A DNA stretch of 64,000 bases from positions 9,743 through 73,742 of the forward strand of contig CAYQMV010000002.1 of NCBI GenBank assembly GCA_964418705.1, in the 5' to 3' direction. Under the pieces are notes generated by a model. It ran no database searches, was not told where the DNA came from, and saw nothing but the letters and a program-made list of their open reading frames with translations. A program made the position numbers and the translations under genes. This DNA comes from an uncultured Sangeribacter sp. Its GTDB lineage: Bacteria; Bacteroidota; Bacteroidia; Bacteroidales; Muribaculaceae. This document shows positions 3,820 to 56,917 of the stretch, one piece after another (the stretch's first letter is position 1; the number at the start of each line of letters is the position of its first letter).

Positions 3820-3870
3820 ATTTTTTTATTTAATTCCACAAAACATATCGCCAAATTTCTTGATGGAGAA

Positions 3871-3887: not shown

Positions 3888-3897
3888 GAAAAATTGT

Positions 3898-3905: not shown

Positions 3906-3954
3906 CGGAATCGTTTACTCAGGTATGTAATACTACTTGATTTTTACGGAAATA

Positions 3955-4473: not shown

Positions 4474-4474
4474 T

Positions 4475-6733: not shown

Positions 6734-6765
6734 TGTATATTTATTTTGATGTGTACATGAGAATG

Positions 6766-6825
6766 TTAGAAAGTGACAACATGAATATAGAGACAACATG
6801 TGATATTAGAAAGTGACAACATGAA
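6766..6825 (+). repeat. 20-bp direct repeat TTAGAAAGTGACAACATGAA, two copies exactly 40 bp apart; the second carries the real start codon
   Basis: Copies lie at 6766-6785 and 6806-6825. A third partial copy, GACAACATG, is at 6792-6800. Confidence 0.9.
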
Positions 6826-7804: not shown

Positions 7805-7844
7805 TGGAAAGACACCGTGCCGCAGCTAATATTTATGAACTGCA

Positions 7845-7893
7845 CTTCAAGAGTTTTATGTTAACTTTTGGAGTGCAGTTCATTTTGACATAG
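7845..7893. terminator. Bidirectional hairpin between convergent genes
   Basis: atgaactgcact (7845-7856) pairs with agtgcagttcat (7882-7893). It is followed by tttg. Confidence 0.6.
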
Positions 7894-7924
7894 TCTCCCT
7901 ATTCGCTGTTACCCGATTACTTGT

Positions 7925-8830: not shown

Positions 8831-9177
8831 TCAAATATATCAGGGCTGTTTACGATTACGGAGTCAAAACGTCTTTCCGGGCTGAGTAGATTTTGACCGC
8901 CGCCTAAAATGATATTTTTAATTTCATACTTTGAGATTCTTGGATGTGTGAGTTCGTCACATCTAAGAAATTCGTATGTTTGTTTCCCACTTAGGGCGTA
9001 TGCTTTATCATTTGCTATGTTGTAGGAATGGAGTCTGACGATTCTTCTGTAATCAAATTGTGCATATACCGATGTATAATCAAGAAGCATAAGATAAATC
9101 CATATTATGGTTCTCATTGGTCGTGTAATCCTTGTCTTGCTGATGCTGTCGGCTCGGTTGCACATTTTTTTATCCAT
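8827..9177 (-). CDS. Hypothetical 116-aa protein, translationally coupled to the methyltransferase
   Basis: Its stop overlaps the methyltransferase start (ATGA). It shares the same AT-rich composition and has its own TAnnTTTG box upstream. It contains the string CD-ELTHPRISKY-EIK (D-X10-E-X-K). I recognised no family. Confidence 0.5.
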   Translation of the reverse strand: MDKKMCNRADSISKTRITRPMRTIIWIYLMLLDYTSVYAQFDYRRIVRLHSYNIANDKAYALSGKQTYEFLRCDELTHPRISKYEIKNIILGGGQNLLSPERRFDSVIVNSPDIFE

Positions 9178-9202
9178 AGCGTAGTGATAGTTTTGTTGAG
9201 TG

Positions 9203-9210
9203 CAAAAATA
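9203..9210 (-). promoter_or_regulatory. Candidate -7 box TATTTTTG (minus strand) for the 116-aa ORF / methyltransferase pair
   Basis: Reverse complement of caaaaata, 26 nt upstream of the ATG at 9177. Confidence 0.45.
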
Positions 9211-9226
9211 GTAATTTTTTTCAAAT

Positions 9227-10819
9227 TTATTCGCTTTTCCACTCCGTGACGTTGCGTTCCTGGGTGTCGAAGTTTACTCCCACTTTGACTAGTTCGCGTT
9301 TGTCGGCGAGGAACGGCTCGGCATATCCTTTCTCTTGGATTTGACGAAGCGCGGCGTCGGCGGAGCCGTTGATTTTAATCTCAACGATGTAGATGTATTT
9401 GGGCGAGAGGATTGTGATGTCGGCGGCACCCTTTGAGCTGCGCACCTCGGCGTTGACCTCGTTGTGAAGCATACGGAAGAAGAAAAAGAAGATGCGGTGG
9501 TAGTACGCTTCGGTCTTTTCGGCGTCGGCGAGGATATCTTTGTCGCCGCGCATATATGGCAGAGACGCGAGCATGGATTTTAGCAGCATCATCGCTTTCT
9601 CCAAGTCACCCTTTTTCAGAGCCACCGACGCGAGTGAGACGGTGTTCTCCACATCATAATCGCTGTTGCCGGAGTACATTGGGAGTAGGTTTTGCAACAA
9701 TCCCACGCGCACCTCGCTGTTGGGGATTCCCAAGAAGAACACCCTCGCTTCGGGATCGTAATCTTTGATGGTGAGATATCCGGCTTGATACAATAGCGAC
9801 AAAGGTCCGGACTGCGATTCGAGCGGTGACTCGAATTTTGCCGGGGATACGGAATTGATGGAATCCAGCATATCAATGTCGAATTTTCCCTCTTGCCGGT
9901 ATTTTTTGAGCATTTCAATGAGGAAGCGTGGCGTTCCGCTGCGGAACCAGTAGCTGTCGATTTTGGCGGATTTGAGTGCGTTGAGCAGACTGAACGGGTT
10001 AAACAACCCTTCGGATTCTTCGCTGAAATGGTACCCATCGTAGGCACTTTGCAGCCGTGCTATGGTCTCCTCGTGTGAGAGTCCCAATTTCTCCGCCATT
10101 TTGTTGATGCCGTATTGGAAGTTCTCCACAAGCTCATGTTCCGTTATTCCGCAGATGGATGCGTATTCATCGCTTCTCGAAATGATTTCCAGATTGTTGA
10201 GTTCGCTGAAGATGCTCAGTTGTGAGAACATGGAGATTCCCGTGAGGAATACGAAGCGCAGATATTTGTCGCAAGTTTTCAGCGGAGAGTAGAACTCGCT
10301 AAGAATCATGCGGATATCCACACGTTTCCCATCATCGTGCAGCACATCAAGGATGGGTGCGTCGTATTCGTCAATTAGTAGTACCGCTTTTTGATTTGTG
10401 GCTTCATAGGTTTTGCGGATTAACGTATTGAGCCTGTCCCCTAATGCGGATGCTGTTTTATTAACGTTGTATCTCTCCTCGTATTCACTTAGCTGCAAGG
10501 CGATGCTCTCGATCATCTCGTTTTTAGGTTTCCCCTTGACGGTGCTGAGGTCGAAATGCAGCACGGGATACTTGATCCACTCCTTTTCAAGTTCTTCCAT
10601 CGCCAATCCGGAGAACAGGTCACTGCGCCCCTCGAAATAGTAGTGGAGCGTGCTTGTCAGCAGCGATTTGCCGAATCGTCGCGGACGGCTGAGGAAAACA
10701 TATTTACAACTATGTGTAAGACGGTGGATAAGAGCCGTCTTGTCCACATATAGCGCGTTGAGAGAACGAATCTCCTCAAAATCTTGGATACCTATCGGGT
10801 AGCGAGGTTCTTCCATCAT
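9227..10819 (-). CDS. AAA-ATPase-like protein with C-terminal PD-(D/E)xK-type domain (the AAA-ATPase_like plus PDDEXK_9 architecture common in Bacteroidales)
   Basis: The N-terminus YPIGIQDFEEIR...YVDKT...FLSRPRRFGKSLL is characteristic of this family. The C-terminal block is ...DITILSPKYIYIVEIKINGSA.... Confidence 0.8.
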   Translation of the reverse strand: MMEEPRYPIGIQDFEEIRSLNALYVDKTALIHRLTHSCKYVFLSRPRRFGKSLLTSTLHYYFEGRSDLFSGLAMEELEKEWIKYPVLHFDLSTVKGKPKNEMIESIALQLSEYEERYNVNKTASALGDRLNTLIRKTYEATNQKAVLLIDEYDAPILDVLHDDGKRVDIRMILSEFYSPLKTCDKYLRFVFLTGISMFSQLSIFSELNNLEIISRSDEYASICGITEHELVENFQYGINKMAEKLGLSHEETIARLQSAYDGYHFSEESEGLFNPFSLLNALKSAKIDSYWFRSGTPRFLIEMLKKYRQEGKFDIDMLDSINSVSPAKFESPLESQSGPLSLLYQAGYLTIKDYDPEARVFFLGIPNSEVRVGLLQNLLPMYSGNSDYDVENTVSLASVALKKGDLEKAMMLLKSMLASLPYMRGDKDILADAEKTEAYYHRIFFFFFRMLHNEVNAEVRSSKGAADITILSPKYIYIVEIKINGSADAALRQIQEKGYAEPFLADKRELVKVGVNFDTQERNVTEWKSE

Positions 10820-10842
10820 AGCGGTTGACTTTTTAGTGAGAG

Positions 10843-10850
10843 CAAAGATA
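10843..10850 (-). promoter_or_regulatory. Candidate -7 box TATCTTTG (minus strand) for the AAA-ATPase-like gene
   Basis: Reverse complement of caaagata, 24 nt upstream of the ATG at 10819. Confidence 0.4.
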
Positions 10851-10958
10851 ATGAAATTTTTTTATACTCCTCCCATTAATTCACGCTATATCACATCTAT
10901 ACAATGCTTCTACCAACTGCTTTATAAGGAGCTCCACCCCGGCTAGCTACTCACTACA

Positions 10959-11273
10959 TTACTTTCCGTTTCTTTCGAGATACTCTGACATGGCCTCGTT
11001 TACGATGTCGCGGAGCGACATGTTTTTCTCTATTGCGAGGTATTTCATGCGGGTGTGGATGCTTTTATTTATGACAAAGTTGCAGTGTACGGCAGACTCC
11101 TTTTTCGGGGCCTCAGCAGCCGCTTCCTGTGCGTTGTGGCGCGGTGCGGCGGCGGATGCCGTGTCGTGGTGAGCCGCCGGCTTGCGGGGCTCTTCATGAG
11201 GTATGGAAGTGGGGGAGAGGAGTCCGTTTAACCCCCCCTTCATGCTGTCTTTAAGAGAATTTGCTTTTCCCAT
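10959..11273 (-). CDS. Small partner protein of ParA with a predicted ribbon-helix-helix C-terminus
   Basis: It lies 20 nt downstream of parA. The N-terminus is low-complexity and Ala/Pro-rich. The C-terminus CNFVINKSIHTRMKYLAIEKNMSLRDIVNEAMSEYLERN fits a strand-helix-helix pattern. Confidence 0.55.
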   Translation of the reverse strand: MGKANSLKDSMKGGLNGLLSPTSIPHEEPRKPAAHHDTASAAAPRHNAQEAAAEAPKKESAVHCNFVINKSIHTRMKYLAIEKNMSLRDIVNEAMSEYLERNGK

Positions 11274-11293
11274 AGTTGTTTCGTTTTTGTACC

Positions 11294-12052
11294 TTATTTC
11301 AGATCAATCACTTCTTTGGCGAGCTCAAGATAATCTTGGGCGCCATAGGAGCGTTTATTGTATTCGAAAATATTTTGACCATGTATGGGCGCTTCGGCGA
11401 GAGCCACATTGTCGCGTATCATAGTCTTAAACACCTTGTCGCAGAAAGACTCTTTGATGAGGTCGCTGACACTCTTGTTGAGCGTTTTTCGTTTGTCGAA
11501 TTGAGTGATGACGATACCGCCTATTTTCAGGTTGCTGTTCAGGCGTTCCTGCACGATTTGAATGATGTTCATGAGCTTCGCCATACCCCTCATTGCGAGG
11601 AATTGCGCTTGCACCGGGATAATGAGGTAGCTCGACGCTGTGAGCGCGTTGAGGGTGAGCAGTCCTAACGACGGGGGACAGTCGATTAGGATATAGTCGA
11701 AGTCGCGTTCTTGGGTGGCGCGGGAGATTAGTCCGCGGAGAATCATTTCGCGCCCCGGTTCGTTGATTAGTTCCGATTCGGCGGCGGAGAGGTCGAGACA
11801 TGAGGGCACGAGAGTGATGCCATTTTCGCACTCATGCATGGGGAGGGGGTATTCACCCTTCATTGCGCCGTAGATTGTTTGAGGTTCTTCAATCGACACC
11901 CCCATGGATTCAGTAAGGTTTGCTTGGCCGTCGAGGTCGATCACCATCACTCTCTTTCCTTGCATTTGAAGGGCTGCCGCGAGGTTAATGGTGGTGGTGC
12001 TTTTGCCCACGCCCCCTTTGTGGTTTAGGATAGCTATTATTTCGGTATTCAT
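11294..12052 (-). CDS. parA: ParA/Soj-family partition ATPase
   Basis: Deviant Walker A motif NHKGGVGKSTT and DLDGQANLT are present. I chose the start at MNTEIIAIL (12052) because a TAACTTTG box lies at 12080-12087. Confidence 0.9.
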   Translation of the reverse strand: MNTEIIAILNHKGGVGKSTTTINLAAALQMQGKRVMVIDLDGQANLTESMGVSIEEPQTIYGAMKGEYPLPMHECENGITLVPSCLDLSAAESELINEPGREMILRGLISRATQERDFDYILIDCPPSLGLLTLNALTASSYLIIPVQAQFLAMRGMAKLMNIIQIVQERLNSNLKIGGIVITQFDKRKTLNKSVSDLIKESFCDKVFKTMIRDNVALAEAPIHGQNIFEYNKRSYGAQDYLELAKEVIDLK

Positions 12053-12079
12053 GATGTTGATATTAATAAAATGATAGTG

Positions 12080-12087
12080 CAAAGTTA
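12080..12087 (-). promoter_or_regulatory. Candidate -7 box TAACTTTG (minus strand) for the parA operon
   Basis: Reverse complement of caaagtta, 28 nt upstream of the ATG at 12052. Confidence 0.5.
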
Positions 12088-45668: not shown

Positions 45669-45815
45669 CAGCGTGTTGGGGATTTTTGATATTCAACACA
45701 ACGATTGTGCATCGCATTAAATTTATAATATTAGAACCATAATATTAAGCTTATTAATACGGTGTGGATTGAAGATATTTTAATAGAATACTAACTAATA
45801 ATAAATCAAATACGT

Positions 45816-47090
45816 ATGAATAGACTTTTTACGTTATCGATGGTTGCCGCAATGGCAATGACCGCGGTGAGCGCCAACGCTTCATTGCGTGATGATTTGG
45901 TGGGTTCATATACCGGAGCCGACCATGGTTATTCTTATTTCGCTTCTTACGAAACCTATGTCTCCTACACATGGAATGCCGGAGAGGGTGAGAACGCTCC
46001 CATGACCATTGAGGCTGGAGATGCCGCCGATGCCGTGGTACTTAAAAATTTCTTCCCCGGATTTTCCAACATTGGTTCTCCGGAGTTGAAAGGTACAGTG
46101 GTTGAGGATACCCAATATGATGGATATTTGGGATATATCAAAATCACACCGCAGGATTGCGGCACTTTCCATTATGACAAAGATGGAAATGACTATCCGA
46201 TGAAGTTCTCCGGCGCATATGATAGCGATGGATGGGCTGGATACACTGAGGACACGCTGCTTGAGGCTGATTTGTGGATTAGCTCCGACGGCTTCATCAG
46301 CACATACGGCAACGGATGGGCTTTGTGCTATCTCTATTCCAATGGATATTATTACTATGGTATCTATGGCGGTTCTGATTCCAATGACGGATTCACCAAA
46401 ATCGAAACCACTCCCTCCAACTCCGTGCGCGACAGTTATATCGGCAAATACAATGGCTTCATTGTAGCGGACTTGGATATCGTGGTTAATGAGAAGGCGC
46501 AAGTGAGATATGATTACGATGGTGTCAACAACGAGTATGTTGAGTTCGTGGCAGGCGAGGGCGCCGATGATATCGTGATCAAGAATCTTATTCCTACCGG
46601 ATTCAACTATATCTCCGCACCTGAGATTCCGGCTAAGATATTTGCTAGCGACAAGTATAAAGGCTACCGTGCCTACGTGGAAATCCAACCTCAGAAACTT
46701 GGCACTATGACAATTGAAGGAAAAGAGTACGACACATGGATCGGCGCTGATTGGGTTTTCCAATCTCATTTCTGCACCGCTCCTACGGAGCCGGCATATT
46801 TCTATATCGCCAACAACGGTGAAATTGAGGTGGACTATACCGGATGGTCTTTGTTTATCGATCTCAATGGTGATCAATCGGAGTATGGCATGGTGTTCGC
46901 CGCCGGACAGAATTTGGATACCCTCTATCCTATGAATGACAGTGTGAAGGGCATTGAGTCTGTTGACGAGAGCGACGCTCCGGTGGTGTACTATAACTTC
47001 AATGGTGTGCGCATGGATGGCAACAACCTCCTCCCGGGCATGTATATCAAACGCCAGGGAAGCAAAGCAACAAAAGTTGTGGTTAGATAG
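45816..47090 (+). CDS. Secreted protein with two copies of an uncharacterised ~170-aa module and a T9SS-type C-terminal sorting domain (paralog 1)
   Basis: Signal peptide ...AVSANA/SL. Modules start at SLRDDLVGSYTG and SVRDSYIGKYNG. The C-terminus VYYNFNGVRMDGNNLLPGMYIKRQGSKATKVVVR resembles Por/T9SS sorting domains. Confidence 0.8.
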   Translation: MNRLFTLSMVAAMAMTAVSANASLRDDLVGSYTGADHGYSYFASYETYVSYTWNAGEGENAPMTIEAGDAADAVVLKNFFPGFSNIGSPELKGTVVEDTQYDGYLGYIKITPQDCGTFHYDKDGNDYPMKFSGAYDSDGWAGYTEDTLLEADLWISSDGFISTYGNGWALCYLYSNGYYYYGIYGGSDSNDGFTKIETTPSNSVRDSYIGKYNGFIVADLDIVVNEKAQVRYDYDGVNNEYVEFVAGEGADDIVIKNLIPTGFNYISAPEIPAKIFASDKYKGYRAYVEIQPQKLGTMTIEGKEYDTWIGADWVFQSHFCTAPTEPAYFYIANNGEIEVDYTGWSLFIDLNGDQSEYGMVFAAGQNLDTLYPMNDSVKGIESVDESDAPVVYYNFNGVRMDGNNLLPGMYIKRQGSKATKVVVR

Positions 47091-47136
47091 CAGTGAGTAG
47101 ATAATAGATATTAGATAAATATTTATATAGAGGTCG

Positions 47137-47189
47137 GGACCTTTAAGGACTTTAACGCAGATGTGAGGTGTTAAGGAACTTAAAGGTCC
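47137..47189. terminator. Long imperfect hairpin between convergent genes
   Basis: ggacctttaag (47137-47147) pairs with cttaaaggtcc (47179-47189). It is followed by tttcat. Confidence 0.5.
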
Positions 47190-47249
47190 TTTCATCATTC
47201 ATAATTTATCATTCATAATTTATAATTACTTCATTCATCATTCATTCAC

Positions 47250-47972
47250 TTATTCGTGCGGTAGCTTCTCGCAACGCGGGGCTCCCTCTCCTTCAGGAGA
47301 GGGTGAGGGGTGAGGCTTCCCATTAAAAGCGGAGTAGGGGAGAAAGATGTCGCCGACTGCGGTTTTACGGGTGTTGGTATGTTTTTCATCGGTGGTGTGT
47401 TTTTCATCGGTGGTGTGTTTTTCATTGGTGTCGTTTTTCCCATTAGTTGAGGCGAGTTCAATGAAGATGCCGGAGGTGTCGCTGCGATAACCGAGGACTT
47501 GAGACCAAGGATAGAAAAATTCACGCTGCGGAAGCAACGGGGATTCAGTGGATGTTTTTGATGAATTCGACTCTATAGAGGCGACGGTCTTGTCGGGGTT
47601 CTCATCGGTGCTGTTTTGTTCCTCCTCCGGAGATTCTTTGGGAGCGTATGTTGTGATTAGGAGTCCGTCCGGGGAGAATGTGAGGGTGTGCGGTAGGAGA
47701 TTGAGGGCGTTCTCAAGGAGCATTCCGTGGTTGAAATAGAAAAGGAGGGCTATCATGGGGAGAACGAGGAGAATGAGCATGAAGCCTACGATGATGAAAC
47801 GGAGGTCGAAAAGGAACCCCGCCGCGAATAACAGCAGAGCCGCCAGACTCGCCGTGGTGATCCACCAAAAGCCATGGCGCGAAATCAAATGTCGGAGCAT
47901 TGCTCCGCGCTTCATCTTATATATGGGAGTGGTGGTTAGATGCGGGAGTGGTGAGTGTGAGGATGTGGGCAT
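47250..47972 (-). CDS. Hypothetical membrane protein with internal hexapeptide repeats
   Basis: Two hydrophobic helices (WWITTASLAALLLFAAGFLF, FIIVGFMLILLVLPMIALLFYF). The start could instead be MKRGAML (47915). Confidence 0.55.
   Translation of the reverse strand: MPTSSHSPLPHLTTTPIYKMKRGAMLRHLISRHGFWWITTASLAALLLFAAGFLFDLRFIIVGFMLILLVLPMIALLFYFNHGMLLENALNLLPHTLTFSPDGLLITTYAPKESPEEEQNSTDENPDKTVASIESNSSKTSTESPLLPQREFFYPWSQVLGYRSDTSGIFIELASTNGKNDTNEKHTTDEKHTTDEKHTNTRKTAVGDIFLPYSAFNGKPHPSPSPEGEGAPRCEKLPHE
47376..47447 (-). repeat. In-frame 18-bp tandem repeat, about 4 units, encoding (T/N)(N/D)EKHT
   Basis: Units lie at 47376, 47394 and 47412, with a degenerate one at 47430. The protein reads NDTNEKHTTDEKHTTDEKHTNT. 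Confidence 0.9.
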
Positions 47973-47991
47973 AGTGACTGTATAAAAGGTG

Positions 47992-48023
47992 CCACGGAGT
48001 TAACGCGTGGGCTAACTCCGTGG
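47992..48023 (-). terminator. Hairpin after the nucleoside phosphorylase gene
   Basis: ccacggagtta (47992-48002) pairs with taactccgtgg (48013-48023). Confidence 0.55.
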
Positions 48024-48037
48024 TATTGTGTCGGGGA

Positions 48038-48916
48038 TTAGAATCTGTCGAGCACTGTCTCCACCAATCGGCGTACAAATGGTTTGTAGTCGGTGTTGGC
48101 GGTGGTGAGACGGCGTTCCGCGATGATGCAGCAGACGGTCATCGCCTTATGGTGGAGGAGTTTCGCCATACCTTGTAGGCAAGCCGATTCCATCTCGAAG
48201 TTGGTGATGCATCTGCCGTTGAAGCGGAAGCTTTCAATTTTCTCATTGAGGGCCGGGTCGGCGAGGGGGAGACGTACCATACGTCCTTGAGGTGCGTAGA
48301 ATCCCACGGCGGCGATGGTGTATCCGCGGTGCATATCATCCTTGCCGATGCGGTTGAGGAGTTCCTCGTCAGCGTCCACGGTGTAGGGCGCGGGCCATAG
48401 CGGGTTCCACTGCACGTGGTCGCAGAAGGCTTTCTCGAACTCCAAGTCGCACACCTTATTGCGGTCGGCGTAGAAATTGAGGATTCCGTCGAATCCCATA
48501 CCTTTCTCCGCCATGACGAAATCGCCGATGTGAAGGTCCTCTTGTAGGGAGCCGGAGGTCCCGATGCGCACCATGTTGAGTGTGCGGTGTGTCGGTTTGA
48601 CGGTGCGTGTGGCGAAGTCTATGTTGGCGAGAGCGTCAAGCTCTGTCACTACGATTTCGATATTGTCGGGGCCGATACCGTGGGAGATGCACATGAGCGG
48701 TTTACCCTTGTAAGTGCCGCCTACGGCATGGAACTCGCGTGATTGCACATCGTAGTCGATGGTGTCGAAGTAGGATGCCACCATGTCCACACGTCCGGGG
48801 TCGCCCACCATTATTATATTGTCGCGGAGTTGCTCCGGACGCAGGTGGATGTGGAATACAGAGCCATCCTCGTTGATGATAAGCTCCGATGCCGGTATTA
48901 CTCTGTTTTCTGACAT
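48038..48916 (-). CDS. Nucleoside phosphorylase (PNP/UDP family, uridine-phosphorylase-like)
   Basis: Contains FHIHL.PE......II.VGDPGRV, the GIGPDNIEIV.TEL-type block and the RIGTSG motif. Confidence 0.75.
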   Translation of the reverse strand: MSENRVIPASELIINEDGSVFHIHLRPEQLRDNIIMVGDPGRVDMVASYFDTIDYDVQSREFHAVGGTYKGKPLMCISHGIGPDNIEIVVTELDALANIDFATRTVKPTHRTLNMVRIGTSGSLQEDLHIGDFVMAEKGMGFDGILNFYADRNKVCDLEFEKAFCDHVQWNPLWPAPYTVDADEELLNRIGKDDMHRGYTIAAVGFYAPQGRMVRLPLADPALNEKIESFRFNGRCITNFEMESACLQGMAKLLHHKAMTVCCIIAERRLTTANTDYKPFVRRLVETVLDRF

Positions 48917-48953
48917 AGTATTTTGGATTTATGTTATTATTTCCTGTTGCCTT

Positions 48954-49036
48954 CTATTAATAGCTTTCTGTTGTCTTCTATTAATAGCTTCTTGTTGCCT
49001 TCTATTAATAGCTTTTTGTCGGTTTTCTATTAATAG
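48954..49036. promoter_or_regulatory. Four phased copies of the perfect 10-bp palindrome CTATTAATAG within a 24-bp tandem unit
   Basis: Palindromes lie at 48954-48963, 48978-48987, 49002-49011 and 49027-49036 (spacing 24, 24, 25). The first is 38 nt upstream of the nucleoside phosphorylase ATG (48916, minus strand). Confidence 0.6.
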
Positions 49037-49088
49037 AGCTTTCTGTTAAAGTTTTCTATATATTCCCTCGAATATGATAAACGTTTAA

Positions 49089-49277
49089 CTAACGGAATTG
49101 GTTGATAGCCTCCACATATTCGAAGCCGGCGGCTCGCAGACGTCGCGTAAGCTCCTCTTGCTCCACATCAAGGTCGCGGCATAGCGAGTCAAGGGTGTCG
49201 TAGCCGTCGCGCAGCTTCATGTTGACCATACTGAGCAGCATGAAGGGGTCTTTGGGTAAATTCGAGTTTGTTGTCAT
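49089..49277 (-). CDS. DUF4250-like small protein (62 aa)
   Basis: MTTNSNLPKDPFMLLSMVNMKLRDGYDTLDSLCRDLDVEQEELTRRLRAAGFEYVEAINQFR matches my recollection of DUF4250. A TACATTTG box inside the longer ORF supports the short start. Confidence 0.7.
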   Translation of the reverse strand: MTTNSNLPKDPFMLLSMVNMKLRDGYDTLDSLCRDLDVEQEELTRRLRAAGFEYVEAINQFR

Positions 49278-49302
49278 TATCTTGTTTGATACTATTTCTC
49301 CA

Positions 49303-49310
49303 CAAATGTA
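49303..49310 (-). promoter_or_regulatory. Candidate -7 box TACATTTG (minus strand) for the DUF4250-like gene
   Basis: Reverse complement of caaatgta, 26 nt upstream of the ATG at 49277. Confidence 0.45.
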
Positions 49311-49586
49311 GCTAAAAATCTTGATATTCTCACATTGACGGGGTAAATCTTGACGGAATCTTGATGAAAAAAAGATGTGGACTTGGCGTGAAAAAGAGGG
49401 ATTATGGCGGATTGTCAAAATTTTAGCATCTTCCTTGAAGTGCAAAGTGACAGAATTTGAGGTTGTATAGAAAATGAAAATAGCAAAATGATAGAATTTA
49501 GTCTGAGATAGGGTAGTTTCTTTGAATGGAAATATGCTTTTATTGGTAAAAATTTTTTTATTTCATGAAAAAATGTCTTTTGAAAA

Positions 49587-49618
49587 TTTGGATTGTAAAC
49601 GAAAATCTCTTAAATTTG
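49587..49618 (+). promoter_or_regulatory. Promoter of paralog 2 / SusC-SusD operon (-33 TTTG, 20-nt spacer, -7 TAAATTTG)
   Basis: TTTG at 49587-49590 and TAAATTTG at 49611-49618. The flanks AAAATTTGGA and TAAATTTGC are identical to those of the paralog 1 promoter. Confidence 0.6.
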
Positions 49619-49734
49619 CGGCATCTTCATGGATCGCGTTAAACCGAAAATTCATCATGGATCGATCGTGTTGAATGCAGCCTCTTCATGAGACCGTGAA
49701 ACGAGAACTCTATAAATAACTAAATCAAATACGT

Positions 49735-51009
49735 ATGTTTAAACTTATTACATCATCAATGCTCGTAGCGATGTTGGCTACAGCAGCGACAGCGTCCGCG
49801 TCATTGCGCGACCAACTAGTAGGTGAGTATCAAGGCAACGCCGGTGGATGGGAATACTCCACAGGGGAATTTGTCTATTACGATGTCAATTACGACGGAG
49901 TGAACAATGCCTATGTCTCCATTCAGGCAGGTACCGCCGATGACGAAGTGCTTATCTCTAACCTTGTCCCCTCCGGCTTCTCTTATCTTAAGCCTATCGG
50001 TCCGTTGAAAGGCAAATTGGTGGAACCGGCGAACTTCCAAGATTATATCGCTTGCATCGAAGTGGAGTCTCAAGAGGCATATCTTGTTTCCGACAGCGAC
50101 CAAGGTTACTTCGCAAGAGGATGGTATGTGGAGGAAGAGGATGGCGAGGAAACCGCTGACTGGTACAGCGCTCCTTACGAGTCCGCCCTTATTTATATCA
50201 ACGCCGACTATAGCATTTCACTTGCGAACTATGGATGGGGCGTTTATGTGTATGATGAGGATTATGGCTACTACTCCGTAGCTTACGGCGGTTCATCAGG
50301 CGACAAGCTCGTGAAAGTAGGCACCGCGCCCTCCACAGACACCGCTTTCCGCGACAAATTCCTCGGAAAATACACCGGCTTGATTGGCGGTACCGAGTAT
50401 TTGGTTAACTATGGAAGTTCATTCGAATTCACTTACGACGGCACTGAGAACCAATATGTTCAGATCGTAGCCGGCGAGGGTGACGACGATGTGGTGATTA
50501 AAAACCTTATCCCCACAAGCTATACCGCAATTTCCGCCGGTGATATCCCCGCCAAGCTTTACGCTTATGATGGATACGATGGATACCAAGGATATATCGA
50601 GGTCCAACCTCAGAAAATCGGATCGATGGTTTACTACGGATACACCCTTGACGCATGGTTCGGCGCCGCATGGAACAGCACGGATTATTGCTCAGGTCCC
50701 ACAGAAGCCGCATACTTCTATATCGCCAACGACGGCTCAATCGTGATGAACTTCACCGGATGGACTGTGTATATGGATTACAACAGTGACCAGACGACTT
50801 ACTATCCCGGTTTCTGCACAGGTTATAAGAATGACACCCTCACTCCCGTATCACTCGACGGTGTGAAGGCAATCGAATCTGTTGACGAAAGCGACGCTCC
50901 CGCAGTTTACTACAACTTCAACGGTGTGCGCGTTGACGGCGACAACCTCCTCCCCGGCATGTATATCAAACGCCAGGGCAACAAGTCTGTAAAAGTCCTT
51001 GTTAAATAA
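49735..51009 (+). CDS. Secreted twin-module protein with T9SS-type C-terminal sorting domain (paralog 2)
   Basis: Also 424 aa. Signal peptide ...ATASA/SL. Modules start at SLRDQLVGEYQG and AFRDKFLGKYTG. The C-terminus VYYNFNGVRVDGDNLLPGMYIKRQGNKSVKVLVK resembles a T9SS sorting domain. Confidence 0.8.
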   Translation: MFKLITSSMLVAMLATAATASASLRDQLVGEYQGNAGGWEYSTGEFVYYDVNYDGVNNAYVSIQAGTADDEVLISNLVPSGFSYLKPIGPLKGKLVEPANFQDYIACIEVESQEAYLVSDSDQGYFARGWYVEEEDGEETADWYSAPYESALIYINADYSISLANYGWGVYVYDEDYGYYSVAYGGSSGDKLVKVGTAPSTDTAFRDKFLGKYTGLIGGTEYLVNYGSSFEFTYDGTENQYVQIVAGEGDDDVVIKNLIPTSYTAISAGDIPAKLYAYDGYDGYQGYIEVQPQKIGSMVYYGYTLDAWFGAAWNSTDYCSGPTEAAYFYIANDGSIVMNFTGWTVYMDYNSDQTTYYPGFCTGYKNDTLTPVSLDGVKAIESVDESDAPAVYYNFNGVRVDGDNLLPGMYIKRQGNKSVKVLVK

Positions 51010-51028
51010 TTTTTGAAGATGGTGGTCC

Positions 51029-51045
51029 GGGGTCGTGGCGACCCC
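51029..51045 (+). other. GC-rich intercistronic hairpin without a T-run
   Basis: ggggtcg-tgg-cgacccc. An alternative outer pairing is gtccggg/cccggac. It lies between paralog 2 and SusC, and I saw no TAnnTTTG box before SusC. Confidence 0.5.
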
Positions 51046-51100
51046 ATGATCCCGGACTTCATATTCGAAACCTTATTTACCGTGAAAAAATATTTCGTAG

Positions 51101-54100
51101 ATGAAAGCAAAATTTTTCTTGATTCTTGCCTGCATACTATTGGGCGTAAGTGTAGTACAGGCACAGACGAAGCGCACTGTCAAGGGTGTCGTCACTTCCC
51201 AAGCGGATGGCGAGCCGGTGATAGGCGCGTCAGTGTTAGTTAAGGGTACCACTCTCGGCGACGCCACCGATGTGGATGGTCAGTTCACTATTCCTAATGT
51301 TTCGGAGTCTTACACCACTTTGGTAGTCTCTTATGTGGGGATGAAATCCAAGGAGGTGAAAATAGAGGCTGGGGAGATGCACATCATATTGGAGAGCGAG
51401 TCTCAATTGCTTGACGAAGTGATGGTGGTGGCATACGGAACAGCCACAAAATCCTCATTCACCGGCTCCGCCGCCGTGATGAAAGCTGATCAAATTGAAC
51501 AAACCCAAGTGTCGAATCCCCTCAACGCCATCGATGGAAAGGTGGCGGGCGTGCAGATGACCAACGCTACCGGACAACCCGGTGAAAGTTCACCTACAAT
51601 CCGTATCCGCGGTATCTCCTCAATCAATGCGGGCAACGACCCCTTGATTATAGTGGATGGTGCTCCTTACAGCGGCAGCGTAAGCAATATCAGCACCACC
51701 GATATCGAATCCATGACTATTCTTAAAGATGCTGCCTCCAACGCCCTCTACGGCGCGCGCGGTGCCAACGGCGTTATCTTGATCACAACCAAGAAGGGTA
51801 ACCACTCCGGCGACGCCACCGTCACTCTCGACGCCAAATGGGGCGGTAACTCCAAGGCAACTCAGAACTACAAATATATCACCAATCCCGCACAATACTA
51901 CGAGACTTATTACAAAGCCCTCTACAACAGCCGTATCGCCAAAGGCTCCACAGCCGCCGATGCCAATGTCTGGGCAAACAATAATCTTATCAGCGGAGCC
52001 AACGGCTTAGGCTATAATGTCTACAACGTGCCCGACGGTCAATACCTTATCGGAACCAACGGCAAACTCAACCCCAACGCCACTCTCGGCAATTTGGTGA
52101 ACTACAACGGACAGGAGTATCTCCTTACTTCCGACAACTGGCTCGACAACGCCTATAAGACAAGTCTCCGTCAGGAGTACAACCTCAGCGTGTCGGCCGG
52201 CAACGACAGAACCAACTTCTACGCTTCGGCAAGCTATCTCGACAACGACGGTATCACCGAGAACTCCGGCTATCGCCGTTTGACCACACGCCTCACCGCC
52301 GACACCCAAGCCAAATCGTGGCTGAAAGTAGGTGGTAACTTCGCTTACACCCACTATGAGACCAAGTCCACCTCCTCCGATGGTGACTCAAGCTCTTCGG
52401 GTAATATCTTCGCGGTGGCTAACAAGATGGCCCCCATCTATCCCCTTTATATCCGCGACGCTTTCGGCAACATCCTCACCGACGTGAACGGAAACCGCCG
52501 TTTCGACTATGGCGACGGTGCCAACGCCGGGATGGAGCGTCCCTATTTCTCGCTCACCAACGCGCTCTCCGACGCTATCTTGAACACCAACAAGAGCGGC
52601 GGCAACAGCGTCAACGCCACCGGCTTCGCTGAAATCCGTTTCCTCAACGACTTCAAATTCACCTCCAACAACAACGTCTCTGTGGATGAGGTGAGATACA
52701 ATATGGTTTCCAACCCCTATTACGGTTATGCCGCAAATAGTGGTGGTTACAACTACGTTTACCACTACCGCACCATGAACTACTCATTCCAACAATTGTT
52801 GAACTGGGACCGTTCATTCGGTAAGAACACTCTCGGTGTCCTCTTGGGACATGAGAACTACTGCTACCGCTACACCACTCTCGGCGGCGGTAAAGCCAAC
52901 ATCCTCAGCGAGTCAAATAAGGAGCTTGACGGCGCTATCATCAACGCCGAGATTACCTCCAACACCACCGACTACAACAACGAGGGTTATTTGATGAGGG
53001 CGCAATACGACTTCGATCAAAAATACTTCGGTTCATTCTCCATCCGCCGCGACGGTTCCTCACGCTTCCATCCCGATCACCGTTGGGGTACCTTCTGGTC
53101 GTTGGGCGGTGCGTATAATATGCACAAAGAGTCATGGTTCGACGTCGCATGGATAGATATGTTCAAAATCAAGGCATCCTATGGTGAGCAGGGTAACGAC
53201 AACATCGGTGAGTTCCGCTACGTTGATACTTACACCCTTGAAAACGGTGGAGGTCAGGTGGCTGTGGTTCCTTACCAAAAGGGTAACTCCACAATCACAT
53301 GGGAGAAGAACGGCAACTTCAACGCCGGTTTCGAGTTCTCCGTGCTCAATTCACGTCTCTCCGGCAGCGCCGAGTTCTTCTACCGCCGCACATCCGATAT
53401 GTTGTCGTGGGTATCACTCCCCGGCTCCTATGGATGGACAGGCTACTACGACAATATCGGTAATATGCAGAACCTCGGTGTCGAGATCGACCTCACAGCG
53501 AATATCATCAGCACCCGTGACTTCAATTGGAGCGTGAACGCCAATATGACATGGTACAAGAACAAGATCACCTCCATCTACGATAAGAACAAGACAATGA
53601 ACGTGGAGGGCCACGGAGGATACAACTCAAGCTATTACTACTATGGCGAGGGATGTTCACTCTATACCTTCTATCTCCCCGCTTACGCCGGAGTGGATGA
53701 GGATGGTCAGGCACTCTACTATTGCGATAAGACCGACGCCAACGGCAACACCGTCCGCGGCACCACCACCAAGTATGGCGATGAAGCCACTTACTATCTC
53801 TGTGACTCCGCACTTCCATCCGTATATGGCGGTTTCGGCACCACATTGGAATATAAAGGATTCGACCTCACCGTGAACTTCGCTTACTCCATCGGCGGCA
53901 AGGTCTACGACAGCGACTATCAAGCAGCCATGTCGTCGCCCACCACCACCAACCGTGGTTATGCGTTCCACGCTGATATCCTCGATTCCTGGTCCACCGA
54001 CAACAAATCTTCGAATATTCCGCGTTTGGCTTACGGCGACCAATACACCGCCGCGATGTCCGACAGATTCCTCACCGACGCGTCTTACCTCTCATTGCAG

Positions 54101-54307
54101 AACATCAACTTCGGCTATTCATTGCCGCAGAACGTGACCCGCAAGATGAAATTGCAGCGAGTGAGATTCTATCTATCCGCCGACAATATTTGGTTGTGGA
54201 GCAAACGTCAGGGACTTGACCCGCGTCAATCCTTCAACGGTACCGCCACCGCCTCATATTACGCGCCTATCCGCACAATCTCCGGTGGTTTTAACGTAAC
54301 CTTCTAA
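51101..54307 (+). CDS. SusC/RagA-family TonB-linked transporter (second copy)
   Basis: Contains VKGVVTSQADGEPVIGASVLVKGTTLGDATDVDGQFTI and TonB box VMVVAYGT. 1068 aa. There is no N-terminal STN signalling extension. Confidence 0.95.
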   Translation: MKAKFFLILACILLGVSVVQAQTKRTVKGVVTSQADGEPVIGASVLVKGTTLGDATDVDGQFTIPNVSESYTTLVVSYVGMKSKEVKIEAGEMHIILESESQLLDEVMVVAYGTATKSSFTGSAAVMKADQIEQTQVSNPLNAIDGKVAGVQMTNATGQPGESSPTIRIRGISSINAGNDPLIIVDGAPYSGSVSNISTTDIESMTILKDAASNALYGARGANGVILITTKKGNHSGDATVTLDAKWGGNSKATQNYKYITNPAQYYETYYKALYNSRIAKGSTAADANVWANNNLISGANGLGYNVYNVPDGQYLIGTNGKLNPNATLGNLVNYNGQEYLLTSDNWLDNAYKTSLRQEYNLSVSAGNDRTNFYASASYLDNDGITENSGYRRLTTRLTADTQAKSWLKVGGNFAYTHYETKSTSSDGDSSSSGNIFAVANKMAPIYPLYIRDAFGNILTDVNGNRRFDYGDGANAGMERPYFSLTNALSDAILNTNKSGGNSVNATGFAEIRFLNDFKFTSNNNVSVDEVRYNMVSNPYYGYAANSGGYNYVYHYRTMNYSFQQLLNWDRSFGKNTLGVLLGHENYCYRYTTLGGGKANILSESNKELDGAIINAEITSNTTDYNNEGYLMRAQYDFDQKYFGSFSIRRDGSSRFHPDHRWGTFWSLGGAYNMHKESWFDVAWIDMFKIKASYGEQGNDNIGEFRYVDTYTLENGGGQVAVVPYQKGNSTITWEKNGNFNAGFEFSVLNSRLSGSAEFFYRRTSDMLSWVSLPGSYGWTGYYDNIGNMQNLGVEIDLTANIISTRDFNWSVNANMTWYKNKITSIYDKNKTMNVEGHGGYNSSYYYYGEGCSLYTFYLPAYAGVDEDGQALYYCDKTDANGNTVRGTTTKYGDEATYYLCDSALPSVYGGFGTTLEYKGFDLTVNFAYSIGGKVYDSDYQAAMSSPTTTNRGYAFHADILDSWSTDNKSSNIPRLAYGDQYTAAMSDRFLTDASYLSLQNINFGYSLPQNVTRKMKLQRVRFYLSADNIWLWSKRQGLDPRQSFNGTATASYYAPIRTISGGFNVTF

Positions 54308-54313
54308 AATGCT

Positions 54314-55921
54314 ATGATGAAAATGAATAAGTTGTTTAAATATTCAATGATATTGGCAGTGGCGGCGCTCAGCACCAGCTGTCTTGACGAGGCGGTCTCC
54401 ACATCGCAGGTCACTCAAAGCGAGCTTGACAGCTCCTCCCGCGGCGCCGACGCGATCTTCTGGGGTATGCCCTCCATGCTCAACTATGTGGGTTCCCTCC
54501 CCACCTCCGACAATTCCTACGACTACGGCTATGGTTCGATGATGCACATACGCGACGTCATGACCGGGGATATGCCGGTGGCTTCCAGCAACTACGAATG
54601 GTACACCGCATGGATGACCAACTCCGGCAACGGCAACTACACCGTCGCCGCCCAGCTCGTGTGGTGGTACATGAACAAGATGGTGCTCGCCACCAACAAC
54701 AGCGTGGCTTACTTCTCCAAGGATGGAGAGGATAAGGGAAGACTCGGGGCTTCGCTCGCTTTCCGCGCCGCCATGTATCTTGACCTCGCCCGTATGTATG
54801 AGTTCCTCCCCAACGATAAGGTCAGCGGAGTGAACAGCTACGGCAACGATGTCACCAACCTCACCGTGCCTATCGTCACCGAGGAGACCACCCAGGAGGA
54901 GGCTTGCAACAACCCCCGTGTCTCCCACAAGGATATGTTTGAGTTCATCCTCTCCGACTTGAACCGCGCCGAGGAGAACATCACCGGCTTCGCACGCGAC
55001 GCTAAGACAGTGCCCGACCTCGGAGTGGTCTACGGCTTGAAGGCTCGTTTGTACATGTGGGATGAGGATTACGCCAACGCCGCCGAGTACGCCCGCAAGG
55101 CTATTTCCGCCTCCGGAGCCACTCCGTTGACGCAGAGCGAATGGCTCGACACCTCCGCAGGTTTCAACACCCTCGCCACCTCCTCATGGATGTGGGGCGC
55201 CCAGCAGACCGCCGAGAGCGCTTCCGTGAAGAGCGTCTACTACAACTGGACCTCATGGAACTGCAACGAGACTCTCTTCGGATATAACTACTACGGCACA
55301 TACACGATGATCGACAAATCAATGTACGACCGTATCTCCGACACCGACTTCCGCAAACTCTCCTACATCGCCCCCGAGGGTTCCATCCTCTCCGGCGCCG
55401 AGCCTTTGGTGGATGAATCTTTCCGTGAGACTTTCGACGAGTATTTCGCTTTGAAATTCCGTCCCGGATCCGGCAACTATAAGGATTACACCATCGGTGC
55501 AGTGACCGACTATCCTTTGATGCGTGTGGAGGAGATGTATTTCATCGAAGCCGAGGCTAAGGCGCACGCCAGCGCCGCCGAGGGAAAAGCCCTTCTTGAG
55601 AGCTTCATGAAGACTTACCGCGACCCCAACTACGTATGCAACGTTTCCTCCATCGAGGATGTGGTTGAGGAGATTGTCTTCCAAAAACGTGTTGAGCTAT
55701 GGGGCGAGGGTCAAACTTTCTTCGACATCAAACGTCTGAATATGTCGGTGACCCGCGGTTACGAGGGATCCAATTTCTCCGGTAACTCCGTGATGAACAC
55801 CAACGGTCGTCCCGCATGGATGAATTTCGTGATGCTTAAGTTCGAGGGTGACAACAACTCCGCGGTGACTAAATGGAACAACCCCGACACCGACGGTTGC
55901 TACGATGTAATTGAACTATAA
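54314..55921 (+). CDS. SusD/RagB-family lipoprotein (second copy)
   Basis: Lipobox LSTSCLDE. It starts 6 nt downstream of SusC. Confidence 0.9.
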   Translation: MMKMNKLFKYSMILAVAALSTSCLDEAVSTSQVTQSELDSSSRGADAIFWGMPSMLNYVGSLPTSDNSYDYGYGSMMHIRDVMTGDMPVASSNYEWYTAWMTNSGNGNYTVAAQLVWWYMNKMVLATNNSVAYFSKDGEDKGRLGASLAFRAAMYLDLARMYEFLPNDKVSGVNSYGNDVTNLTVPIVTEETTQEEACNNPRVSHKDMFEFILSDLNRAEENITGFARDAKTVPDLGVVYGLKARLYMWDEDYANAAEYARKAISASGATPLTQSEWLDTSAGFNTLATSSWMWGAQQTAESASVKSVYYNWTSWNCNETLFGYNYYGTYTMIDKSMYDRISDTDFRKLSYIAPEGSILSGAEPLVDESFRETFDEYFALKFRPGSGNYKDYTIGAVTDYPLMRVEEMYFIEAEAKAHASAAEGKALLESFMKTYRDPNYVCNVSSIEDVVEEIVFQKRVELWGEGQTFFDIKRLNMSVTRGYEGSNFSGNSVMNTNGRPAWMNFVMLKFEGDNNSAVTKWNNPDTDGCYDVIEL

Positions 55922-55939
55922 CCCAATAATTTTGAAACT

Positions 55940-56917
55940 ATGTTTATCAAGAAACTATATATATTGGCATTGGCGGTAGCCGCTATGGGTGCGGTGTCGT
56001 GTGAGGATGAGGCTGACTACGCTCCTGCGTCGGTGCCTACCAACGACCAAGTCTATTTTCCGAATAATGTCCGTAGGGCAGTGCAGCTGGAGAAGGGTCA
56101 GACCTCTTTCTCCGTGGATGTTTACCGCATCGGGACCTCCGATGCCATCACGGTGCCCGTCACCGCCACCGGCTCGGATGCCGAAGTGTTTGTGCTCCCT
56201 TCGTCGGTGACATTCGCCGCCGGTGAAAGCAGAGCCACCATGAACGTTGGTGTGAATTTCGATAAGGTGCAATCCGGCGTGGCTTACACCCTCGACTTCA
56301 CTCTCGATTCAGGCTATACCAGCGAGTATGGCGACGCTCTGTGCAGCTATTCCGTAGAGTACTTCCGTAAGGGTGATCCTTTGCGCGACCTTGTCGCCGG
56401 ATATTATGAGGGTACCTCCGCCGGCTATGACTATTGGACAAGAGCATGGTATGCCACCGCCTTCAGCTATAACTATAATGACGGTGCCAACGAGGCCCTT
56501 CGCATACTCCCCGGTGATGGTGACGCGGATGTGTCGGTACGCAATCTCTTCCCCACTACTGAATACCTTAATGTCACCGATGTCGTGGGTGAGGTAATCA
56601 CCTCCTCCGATTATGAGGGATATTTGGGATATATCCTCCTTAAGCCCCAGGTGGTCGGCAGTTATACCACCCAAGGTGGTTTCGGCGACTTTGATGTGAC
56701 ATTCGCCGCCGCATGGGCCACAGGCAGCTACGCCACCGCCCCCACCGATGACATGGAGGTATGGATCGCCGGAACCGGTTCCGTCGCCGACGGCACTGCG
56801 GAAATCACAAGCGTGGATTTCAACGGCGCCGGTTGGGCGTTGATGTTCGGTTACGATGCATGGGGAATGTGGTACTACGCCGCTTGCGGTGGTGCCGTGG
56901 TCACCCCCGTGAAATAA
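55940..56917 (+). CDS. Lipoprotein: N-terminal Ig-like domain plus one copy of the module found in the two T9SS-tagged paralogs
   Basis: Lipobox GAVSCEDE. The module PLRDLVAGYYEG...DADVSVRNLFP...YEGYLGYILLKPQ...GW aligns with the paralog modules. Confidence 0.8.
   Translation: MFIKKLYILALAVAAMGAVSCEDEADYAPASVPTNDQVYFPNNVRRAVQLEKGQTSFSVDVYRIGTSDAITVPVTATGSDAEVFVLPSSVTFAAGESRATMNVGVNFDKVQSGVAYTLDFTLDSGYTSEYGDALCSYSVEYFRKGDPLRDLVAGYYEGTSAGYDYWTRAWYATAFSYNYNDGANEALRILPGDGDADVSVRNLFPTTEYLNVTDVVGEVITSSDYEGYLGYILLKPQVVGSYTTQGGFGDFDVTFAAAWATGSYATAPTDDMEVWIAGTGSVADGTAEITSVDFNGAGWALMFGYDAWGMWYYAACGGAVVTPVK

Follow-up and report, generated by a model that had tools for sequence, protein, structure and literature searches.

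A rare repeated module on tagged secretory proteins and on a lipoprotein encoded with a SusC/SusD transporter in an uncultured Sangeribacter

What does a protein module do that is encoded five times in three genes, two of which flank a SusC/SusD importer? The question is raised by a stretch of 64,000 nucleotides (hereafter the window) from an uncultured Sangeribacter sp., a mouse-gut Muribaculaceae bacterium (contig CAYQMV010000002.1, positions 9,743 to 73,742). In the window, two paralogous proteins, P1 and P2, each carry two copies of a module of about 175 amino acids (aa) followed by a C-terminal tag that resembles the sorting signals of type IX secretion system (T9SS) cargo, and a lipoprotein, P3, carries a fifth copy. 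P2 and P3 enclose the SusC and SusD genes; P1, a paralogue of P2, is not linked to them. The explanation we tentatively favour, at somewhat less than an even chance, is that P2-SusC-SusD-P3 is a self-contained outer-membrane uptake cassette in which displayed capture modules feed a RagAB-like SusCD pair, probably with a peptide-like ligand. Since the module sits beside a SusC/SusD importer, what it most likely captures is the nutrient of that importer.

The first-pass annotation of this DNA had proposed five copies of one uncharacterised module with four ordered landmarks. A profile of 26 modules, searched against all six frames of the window, detected exactly these five (domain E 2.7e-44 to 7.4e-62) and no others, and a profile of the tag found exactly two, at the ends of P1 and P2. 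In BLASTP comparisons at a database size of 1e9, significance was reached by nine of ten module pairs (E 5e-5 to 1.5e-53; 27-47% identity, with 47% for P1b and P2b), and the remaining pair, P2a and P3m, was weak (E 0.15) and is linked through P2b. P1 and P2 were 44% identical end to end, and each matched P3 twice. All four landmarks were present, with one deviation in P3, which reads PLRDLVAGYYEG and has Ala where the pattern wants Val, Ile or Leu.

Pfam and NCBIfam scans of P1, P2 and P3 matched the module to no family above threshold, and the 26 modules scanned singly likewise gave no such family and no lipocalin Pfam model. Profile searches of PDB sequences with the module, the tag and the N-terminal domain of P3 gave no match, and with no significant PDB fold match either, the description of the module as uncharacterised held. 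Among 5.8 billion proteins, a word-indexed search found four relatives of P1, one of which (P0001) was 97% identical to it, and two relatives of P3. An exhaustive HMMER search of 1.84 billion representative proteins with the module profile gave 31 matches, about 26 of them real clusters. The weak matches P0027-P0036 were rejected because they failed a local re-search for the module domain, except for the true fragments P0029 and P0035; P0027, the sole one of them scanned, is an RTX/Ca-binding repeat protein matched over a GxGxDD stretch. With a profile of the P3-type lipoprotein, relatives among 185,579 species genomes were found only in two metagenome-assembled genomes (MAGs) labelled 'uncultured Sangeribacter sp.' (Muribaculaceae), and metagenome scans gave no match. 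The family to which the module belongs is previously undescribed and very rare. It has no counterpart in Pfam, NCBIfam or PDB, and judging from the sequences retrieved it appears to be confined to Muribaculaceae, namely Sangeribacter MAGs and their relatives.

All of the approximately 26 true clusters showed one of two architectures. In the first, a signal peptide is followed, sometimes after other unknown beta domains, by one to three (or more) modules and the C-terminal tag of about 48 aa; the signal peptides of P1 and P2 are hydrophobic and end in ANA and ASA, each before Ser. In the second, a lipoprotein Cys with acidic residues precedes an N-domain of about 125 aa and one module. Modules of the tag-bearing and of the lipoprotein type formed distinct sequence subtypes. 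Tandem modules inside one protein ranged from 29% to 84% identity, and duplication has therefore been recurrent. At a related locus, L010 (MAG GCA_964490275.1), the multi-module gene at 3727-5090 was interrupted by a run of N in the assembly, with near-identical tandem modules on either side, which suggests that module copy number is under-assembled in MAGs. Additional Trp-rich beta domains occurred in P0004 (aa 200-325), P0015 (aa 20-225, two tandem copies) and P0016 (aa 20-295). To the eye they resembled SusE/F domains or carbohydrate-binding modules (CBMs), but they had no match in Pfam or among PDB sequences, and those of P0004 and P0015 were not used as evidence.

The two forms of the module have been kept together with one transporter. 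The gene order of module(s) with tag, SusC, SusD, and lipoprotein with N-domain and module was found in the window and at loci L002, L003/L005, L004, L006, L010, L011, L012 and L014, and was counted in at least seven independent loci, which bears out the earlier proposal that a form with a sorting tag and a lipid-anchored form are both tied to SusC/SusD. The tag-bearing gene lay directly upstream of SusC at seven loci (L002, L005, L006, L010, L011, L012 and L014). At L002 it had three modules, and DUF4250 and PNP genes were found upstream as in the window; at L006 it had a single module. In the window, P2 and SusC are separated by 91 bp on the same strand, and the SusD gene starts 6 bp downstream of SusC. 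Stand-alone tag-bearing genes away from SusCD were also present (P1, L007 and L008). SusC was 89% (L005), 76% (L006), 71% (L010) and 72% (L014) identical to that of the window, SusD 74% (L006) and 69% (L010), and the lipoprotein 67% (L005), 54% (L006) and 39% (L010); by the identities at L005, L006 and L010, the rate of evolution of the module proteins is roughly double that of the transporter. At L005, the cassette is followed by a gene other than the Asp/Ala exchanger that follows it in the window, and this neighbourhood is therefore not a conserved one.

The transporter genes belong to a SusC/SusD import pair. SusC matched TIGR04056 with 778 bits (cut-off 368), has the SusC signature TIGR04057, and carries CarboxypepD_reg and Plug domains without an STN domain; the next gene is of the SusD family. 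Among solved structures, the best match of SusC was RagA (PDB 6sli, 369 bits), followed by the dextran SusC (342) and the levan SusC (317). A second SusC in the same window, taken from a mannan utilisation locus and used as a control, reached 645 bits with the dextran SusC and 380 with the levan SusC, but only 278 with RagA. SusD matched PF07980 (E 8e-8) and the PDB entries 3lew (E 4e-26) and 3snx (E 5e-24), both of them SusD-like proteins from structural genomics; 3snx is probably BT_1439, which is a lead only. BT1439-BT1440 is a minimal SusCD pair that has no phenotype on carbohydrates, and cells that lose it are protected from vancomycin (PMC8121099).

No carbohydrate-active enzyme (CAZyme), hybrid two-component, extracytoplasmic function (ECF) or anti-sigma gene was found in or beside the cassette in the window, L002, L006, L010 and L014, and no glycoside hydrolase in or beside it at any locus; in the window, P2 to P3 are flanked by non-CAZyme genes. 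The cassette is not a polysaccharide utilisation locus (PUL) in the functional sense, having neither linked glycan enzymes nor a glycan-sensing regulator. At L010 and L014, a family S9 peptidase of 829-833 aa directly followed the lipoprotein on the same strand with a gap of 0-4 bp, and at L013, a short locus, the N-terminus of the same peptidase was found in that place. It matched Peptidase_S9 with E 4.7e-44 and a Dpp5-like model with 177 bits, which is below the cut-off of 900, and it showed an N-terminal signal sequence and a weak N-terminal match to a TolB-type beta-propeller (E 3.7e-4). L010 also had, at 1198-3427 and about 300 bp upstream of the cassette, genes for a Bacteroidetes-type PhoB (297 bits, cut-off 270) and a PhoR-like kinase. 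They were seen at L010 only, and we treated a link of the cassette to the Pho regulon as unsupported.

P1 and P2 had been described as ending in a T9SS-like C-terminal domain (CTD). The tag of about 45-50 aa is located at the extreme C-terminus of proteins with a Sec signal peptide in P1, P2 and all tag-bearing members of the family, and has the consensus G(V/I)xxIxxDxxNAPVEYYNLQGVRVxNPxNGLYIRRQGNKATKVLVK, with YYNFNGVRM, GMYIKRQG and KVVVR as the corresponding motifs of P1. In 69 aligned tags, the Gly of YYN(L/F)xGVRV and the Lys of KV(L/V)VK were invariant. Two motifs are needed for T9SS export by experiment, L-beta3-beta4 (F695-D-M-N-G-R-R701 in RgpB, with Gly699 essential) and C-t. (the Lys of beta7), and characterised CTDs are seven-stranded, Ig-like 3+4 beta-sandwiches of 67-108 aa (PMC11285876). 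The Gly and Lys motifs of the tag correspond to L-beta3-beta4 and C-t. in a comparison made by eye, with no statistical alignment. An AlphaFold2 model of the P2 tag (predicted local distance difference test, pLDDT, 81 overall, rising above 90 in the last 35 residues) had strands only at 21-24, 30-31, 39-45 and 48-54, and we read these three to four predicted strands as the sheet beta3-beta4-beta6-beta7, on which both motifs lie. Among PDB folds, the model was matched best by HBP35, a T9SS cargo of Porphyromonas gingivalis, at a non-significant E (prob 0.94, rmsd 2.1 Å, 41 columns, 32% identity). Thus, the motifs and the position of the described domain stood, whereas its length and its recognition by the T9SS models TIGR04183 and PF18962 did not. 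The tag is a non-canonical, half-length CTD, outside type A in length, in fold and in recognition by the curated models, and it probably acts like a T9SS CTD of which it would be a truncated derivative.

The tag also occurs on proteins outside the module family. Its profile matched at least 314 protein clusters, the named sources of which were Muribaculaceae, Duncaniella or Bacteroidales, and the N-terminal parts of the tagged clusters were unrelated, including BspA-like leucine-rich repeat, DNRLRE and chitobiase-C domains. PF18962 was present in the precomputed annotation of none of the 120 among the tag matches listed. The tag may be the main T9SS signal of Muribaculaceae. Literature searches on T9SS in this family gave one preprint, which predicts a T9SS cargo there, without core-gene analysis. 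The annotation had named the absence of T9SS core genes from the organism as a point that would count against it. A relative speaks in favour of the annotation here: in L014 (MAG GCA_964556875.1), porP-porK-porL-porM-porN and an OmpA-family gene (1530-9502) lie directly upstream of the orthologous cassette. Here porK was assigned by the FGE-sulfatase family, porM by GldM and porN by GldN, and porL by position only, with no Pfam match. At L014, a SusCD cassette and T9SS core genes are physically linked.

The lipoprotein signal of P3 ends in GAVSC, with Cys at position 21, followed by acidic EDEAD, and a lipobox Cys with acidic residues was present in five of five P3 orthologues. The P3 relatives P0009 (67%), P0010 (53%), P0022 and P0023 were all encoded directly after a SusD. 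An Ig-like N-terminal domain had been proposed for P3, a label with less support: the N-domain gave matches to PF08522 (BT_3987-like_N) that were all below threshold (best E 0.003), and five N-domains searched against Pfam and NCBIfam matched no family above threshold. In gene position and architecture, that is, location after SusD, the lipobox and the weak PF08522 matches, P3 corresponds to a SusE/F-type surface binding protein, but its C-terminal module had no homology to any surface glycan-binding protein (SGBP) or CBM in Pfam, PDB sequence and PDB fold searches.

An AlphaFold2 model of P2b, made from an alignment of 11 sequences, was confident (pLDDT 90.2, predicted TM score 0.87) and consisted of a short N-terminal helix and 13 beta-strands with short loops between them. 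The only PDB fold matches were weak ones to lipocalins, avidin/streptavidin and a CRL/CpcT-like barrel (E 0.16-1, TM score at most 0.37), and to this extent the earlier remark that the opening of the module is vaguely calycin-like was fair. In the BFVD database, the only match below E 0.001 was the uncharacterised Mx8 p58 (E 7.9e-4, TM 0.49 and 0.58), followed by a 'lipocalin-like' phage protein at E 0.13. Neither database returned a beta-sandwich or jelly-roll CBM for this model. The modules are acidic (isoelectric point about 4.05), aromatic residues make up 15-19% of them, and in the module alignment neither His, Met nor Cys is conserved and none of the invariant residues, which are Gly, Tyr, Trp and Asn, looks catalytic. 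We infer from this that the module is an all-beta, non-catalytic domain for ligand capture.

Taken as an uptake cassette, the locus could work as follows. P1, P2 and their tag-bearing relatives, with one to three or more tandem modules and a half-length tag, would be moved across the outer membrane by the T9SS and probably tethered at the cell surface, and these multivalent proteins would capture the ligand at a distance. The Ig-like N-domain of P3 would hold its single module next to the SusCD pore in the manner of a SusE/F-type surface binding protein and thereby concentrate the ligand at the transporter, after which SusD would close over the ligand and TonB-powered SusC would import it. In the clade with the fifth gene, trimming of the ligand would fall to an S9 exopeptidase in the periplasm or at the surface. 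The ligand is most likely an oligopeptide or otherwise protein-derived, similar to the substrates of RagAB, and not a polysaccharide. In Bacteroidales, T9SS cargo usually stays anchored at the surface instead of being released, and therefore the 'secreted scavenger' proposed at first may be a surface-displayed capture protein.

Several observations weigh against this explanation. The structure of the module gave no informative neighbour, with nothing below E 0.1 in the Foldseek search of P2b against PDB (best E 0.16, TM 0.36). The lead of RagA over the glycan SusCs is modest (369 vs 342 bits), and SusD had no match to RagB in PDB at E < 0.01. The S9 peptidase is missing from the cassette of the window and from the two Sangeribacter loci with a visible downstream region; the link to peptides is therefore drawn from a sister clade, in which the lipoprotein shares only 37-39% identity, and proteins of the S9 fold can also be esterases. 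As to export, TIGR04183 and PF18962 missed P1, P2, the isolated tag and nine other tag-bearing proteins even at E <= 1-10, the tag is about half as long as any characterised CTD, its match to HBP35 had an E of 0.85, which is non-significant for a short query, with a TM of 0.55 normalised to the query, and no T9SS genes were found within the 64-kb window.

The features of the locus are listed in Table 1. Upstream of P1 and P2, there are promoter-like elements which, by comparison with the known Bacteroides consensus, would correspond to -33 TTTG and -7 TAnnTTTG. The last approximately 20 nt before the ATG are nearly identical in P1 (AATAAATCAAATACGTATG, 45780-45818) and P2 (ACTAAATCAAATACGTATG, 49700-49737) and could be a translation-initiation or regulatory element, and the remainder of the leaders of about 120-150 nt differs. 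No obvious operator was found in the upstream regions of P1 and P2, which share the promoter-like element and these last approximately 20 nt, and an Rfam scan of the whole window found no riboswitch or other RNA hinting at a ligand.

Table 1. Positions of the module-bearing genes, their parts and the transporter genes in the 64,000-nucleotide window
Feature	Position	Strand	Description
P1	45816-47090	+	424 aa: signal peptide, two modules, C-terminal tag; stand-alone (open reading frame listing)
Module P1a	45882-46415	+	P1 aa 23-200; 26-module profile, domain E 1.2e-53
Module P1b	46416-46943	+	P1 aa 201-376; 26-module profile, domain E 2.1e-54
P1 C-terminal tag	46944-47087	+	48 aa; tag profile E 9e-24
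P2	49735-51009	+	424 aa, first gene of the cassette: signal peptide, two modules, C-terminal tag (open reading frame listing)
Module P2a	49801-50340	+	P2 aa 23-202; 26-module profile, domain E 2.7e-44; most divergent copy
Module P2b	50341-50862	+	P2 aa 203-376; 26-module profile, domain E 7.4e-62; used for the structure model
P2 C-terminal tag	50863-51006	+	48 aa; tag profile E 6.5e-23
SusC/RagA-family TonB-dependent transporter	51101-54307	+	1068 aa; TIGR04056
SusD-family lipoprotein	54314-55921	+	535 aa; PF07980
P3 lipoprotein	55940-56917	+	325 aa; Ig-like N-domain aa 22-145, then one module
Module P3m	56375-56914	+	P3 aa 146-325; fifth copy; 26-module profile, domain E 1e-56
Promoter-like element upstream of P1	45630-45669	+	Bacteroidetes type; TTTT.AAATTTGG ... 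TTAAATTTGC, read from sequence
Promoter-like element upstream of P2	49578-49619	+	conserved with the elements of P1 and L002 (alignment)

A large locus for (galacto/gluco)mannan utilisation occupies 18193-44873 of the window and ends about 1 kb before P1. Its genes are, in the first part, GH36, mannose-6-phosphate isomerase, an AraC regulator, GH5, a SASA esterase, GH5, an AXE1 esterase, SusC and SusD, and in the remainder, a TIG and SGBP-B-like lipoprotein, an unknown protein of 502 aa, GH26, GH94, GH26, GH130, a GPH symporter and a cellobiose-2-epimerase-like gene. Neither the tag nor the module is present in any protein of this locus. Between P1 and P2, on the minus strand at 47250-47972, there is a predicted membrane protein of 240 aa with no Pfam match and a C-terminal tandem 'TDEKHT' repeat; on the DNA, overlapping terminator-like repeats were flagged at 47386-47430. 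Further away, a Dcm-type cytosine methyltransferase and a ParA-family ATPase lie beside unannotated ORFs at 7925-12082 on the minus strand, which may be a mobile-element remnant.

Among other explanations, the one that survives best is an orphan polysaccharide system, in which the module would be a new CBM, P3 a SusE/F-type SGBP, and P1 and P2 glycan binders displayed by the T9SS, with the enzymes encoded elsewhere, for example in the mannan locus. SusCD pairs mostly serve glycans, and P3 has the place and build of an SGBP, being a lipoprotein with an Ig-like N-domain encoded after SusD. Tandem repeats and an acidic composition rich in aromatics are typical of CBMs, modules are fused to other Trp-rich beta domains in P0004 and P0015, and P1 adjoins a large mannan PUL. 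However, that adjacency is not kept elsewhere, as L002, L006, L010 and L014 have different neighbours, and no locus has a CAZyme in or beside the cassette. The cassette SusC is more RagA-like than the glycan SusC of the same genome, an S9 peptidase is linked at three loci, the confident model of the module matches no beta-sandwich or jelly-roll CBM in PDB, and the additional domains of P0004 and P0015 match no known CBM. We consider this explanation unlikely on this balance.

A small-ligand scavenger of the hemophore or calycin kind, in which a barrel-like module would bind haem, a quinone or a vitamin and the T9SS form would deliver it to the lipoprotein form, was doubtful to a greater degree. 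It is in line with the occurrence of the same module in a distal and a transporter-proximal form, with the weak fold neighbours, all of which are ligand-binding up-and-down barrels (lipocalins, avidin/streptavidin, CpcT-like CRL and the phage 'lipocalin-like' protein), and with the fact that HBP35 is a haemin-binding T9SS cargo, a match which concerns the tag and not the module. Those fold matches were all non-significant in PDB (E >=0.16, TM <=0.37), the module lacks conserved His, Met or Cys, the window holds no riboswitch or other Rfam element, and tandem multivalency is unusual for small-ligand carriers. The known small-ligand systems work with classical TonB-dependent transporters that have no SusD lid. 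The hemophore analogy offered in the first-pass annotation lacked support in its specifics: there was no match to a hemophore in sequence or fold, and the partner is a SusC with a SusD lid rather than a receptor of the HasR or HmuR type. The class of SusC with a SusD lid is so far known for oligomeric ligands, and the gene context, with the S9 peptidase at three loci and the RagA-like SusC, points to peptides.

We give an equally small chance to a variable surface coat or a set of adhesins, co-transcribed with SusCD without feeding it and serving, for example, phage or antibody shielding or adhesion. The faster evolution of the module proteins (67/54/39% identity for the lipoprotein against 89/76/71% for SusC), a module copy number that varies from one to three or more, with copies up to 84% identical as signs of recent tandem duplication, and the stand-alone copies away from SusCD (P1, L007 and L008) would all suit a coat. 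On the other hand, both formats are strictly linked, with orientation kept, to one orthologous SusCD across diverged genomes, which argues for a shared function, and P3 is in the canonical position of an SGBP. Homotypic docking, in which the module would be a protein-protein unit tethering T9SS cargo to the lipoprotein at SusCD rather than a ligand binder, agrees with the same fold on two partners that are always encoded together and with their distinct subtypes, but it is very improbable, as stand-alone tag-bearing paralogues with divergent modules (29-34% identity within one protein) are an ill fit for a simple docking pair.

Returning to the uptake cassette with a peptide-like ligand, one of its closest known counterparts is RagAB of P. 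gingivalis, an oligopeptide importer which works with T9SS-secreted gingipains and periplasmic dipeptidyl peptidases. Like RagAB, the cassette has a SusC/SusD-type pair without glycan enzymes, the best solved relative of its SusC is RagA, T9SS-type cargo is encoded alongside, and an S9 Dpp5-like peptidase is linked at three loci. Unlike RagAB, its SusD is not detectably RagB-like and its T9SS-type proteins have no protease domain, while RagAB has no accessory lipoprotein and no cargo built of the same module. If our explanation is true, the cassette would be a RagAB-like SusCD system that lacks enzymes and has accessory binding proteins of a new class, in which T9SS cargo is linked directly to an importer.

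With SusE, SusF and other SGBPs of Bacteroides PULs and 'utilisomes' (levan and dextran; PDB 5t3r and 8aa4), the cassette shares the lipoprotein right after SusD, an Ig-like N-terminal spacer followed by a C-terminal binding domain in that lipoprotein, and its faster evolution relative to SusC/SusD. It differs in that the module is unrelated in sequence or fold to any CBM or SGBP domain, that glycoside hydrolases and hybrid two-component or ECF regulators are absent, and that the module is also placed on T9SS-type cargo. BT2261-BT2264 of Bacteroides thetaiotaomicron, a four-component SusCD system (PDB 5fq6-8), and BT1439-BT1440 (PMC8121099) are likewise enzyme-less SusCD loci, with extra lipoproteins or none, and are suspected of carrying non-glycan ligands; the accessory proteins of BT2261-BT2264 are unrelated to those described here, and BT2264 is only a distant match to the cassette SusC (121 bits).

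Compared with type A CTDs (TIGR04183/PF18962; structures of RgpB, HBP35, PorZ, PorU and mirolase), the tag has the same location at the extreme C-terminus of Sec-exported proteins, an L-beta3-beta4-like invariant Gly, an invariant Lys in the terminal strand with a KV(L/V)VK end, and HBP35 as best fold match, and differs in having 45-50 aa and three to four predicted strands instead of a seven-stranded sandwich of 67-108 aa and in being missed by the curated hidden Markov models. If it is a T9SS signal, it would define a minimal T9SS-targeting structure, namely a four-stranded sheet with the L-beta3-beta4 and C-t. motifs. Muribaculaceae dominate the mouse gut, and their envelope biology is almost unstudied; since the tag occurs on at least 314 clusters and escaped both T9SS models wherever it was scanned, the secretome of Muribaculaceae as predicted at present would be seriously incomplete.

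The haem relay of the Isd/NEAT type in Gram-positive bacteria and the HasA and HmuY hemophores are functional analogies only, as there is no homology, no conserved haem-ligating residues, and another envelope and transporter class; for hemophores in general (HasA, HmuY and HusA), the module has no match and no haem ligands, and its partner is SusC/SusD. What the Isd/NEAT relay has in common with the cassette is a binding module reused on surface-anchored proteins, in one to three tandem copies with a C-terminal sorting signal, and ending at a membrane transporter. A bolder reading, which we regard as improbable, would make the cassette a counterpart of that relay: a new fold on T9SS-anchored and lipoprotein carriers would pass a non-glycan nutrient, be it a peptide, a protein or a cofactor, into SusCD, and export would proceed by a half-length T9SS signal found on hundreds of Muribaculaceae proteins and invisible to annotation. 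The module family is small and lineage-restricted, with a putative function in ligand capture, and set against these known systems, the locus presents new parts of a SusCD uptake system of a known type, namely a module family not described before and a short T9SS-like tag that escapes annotation.

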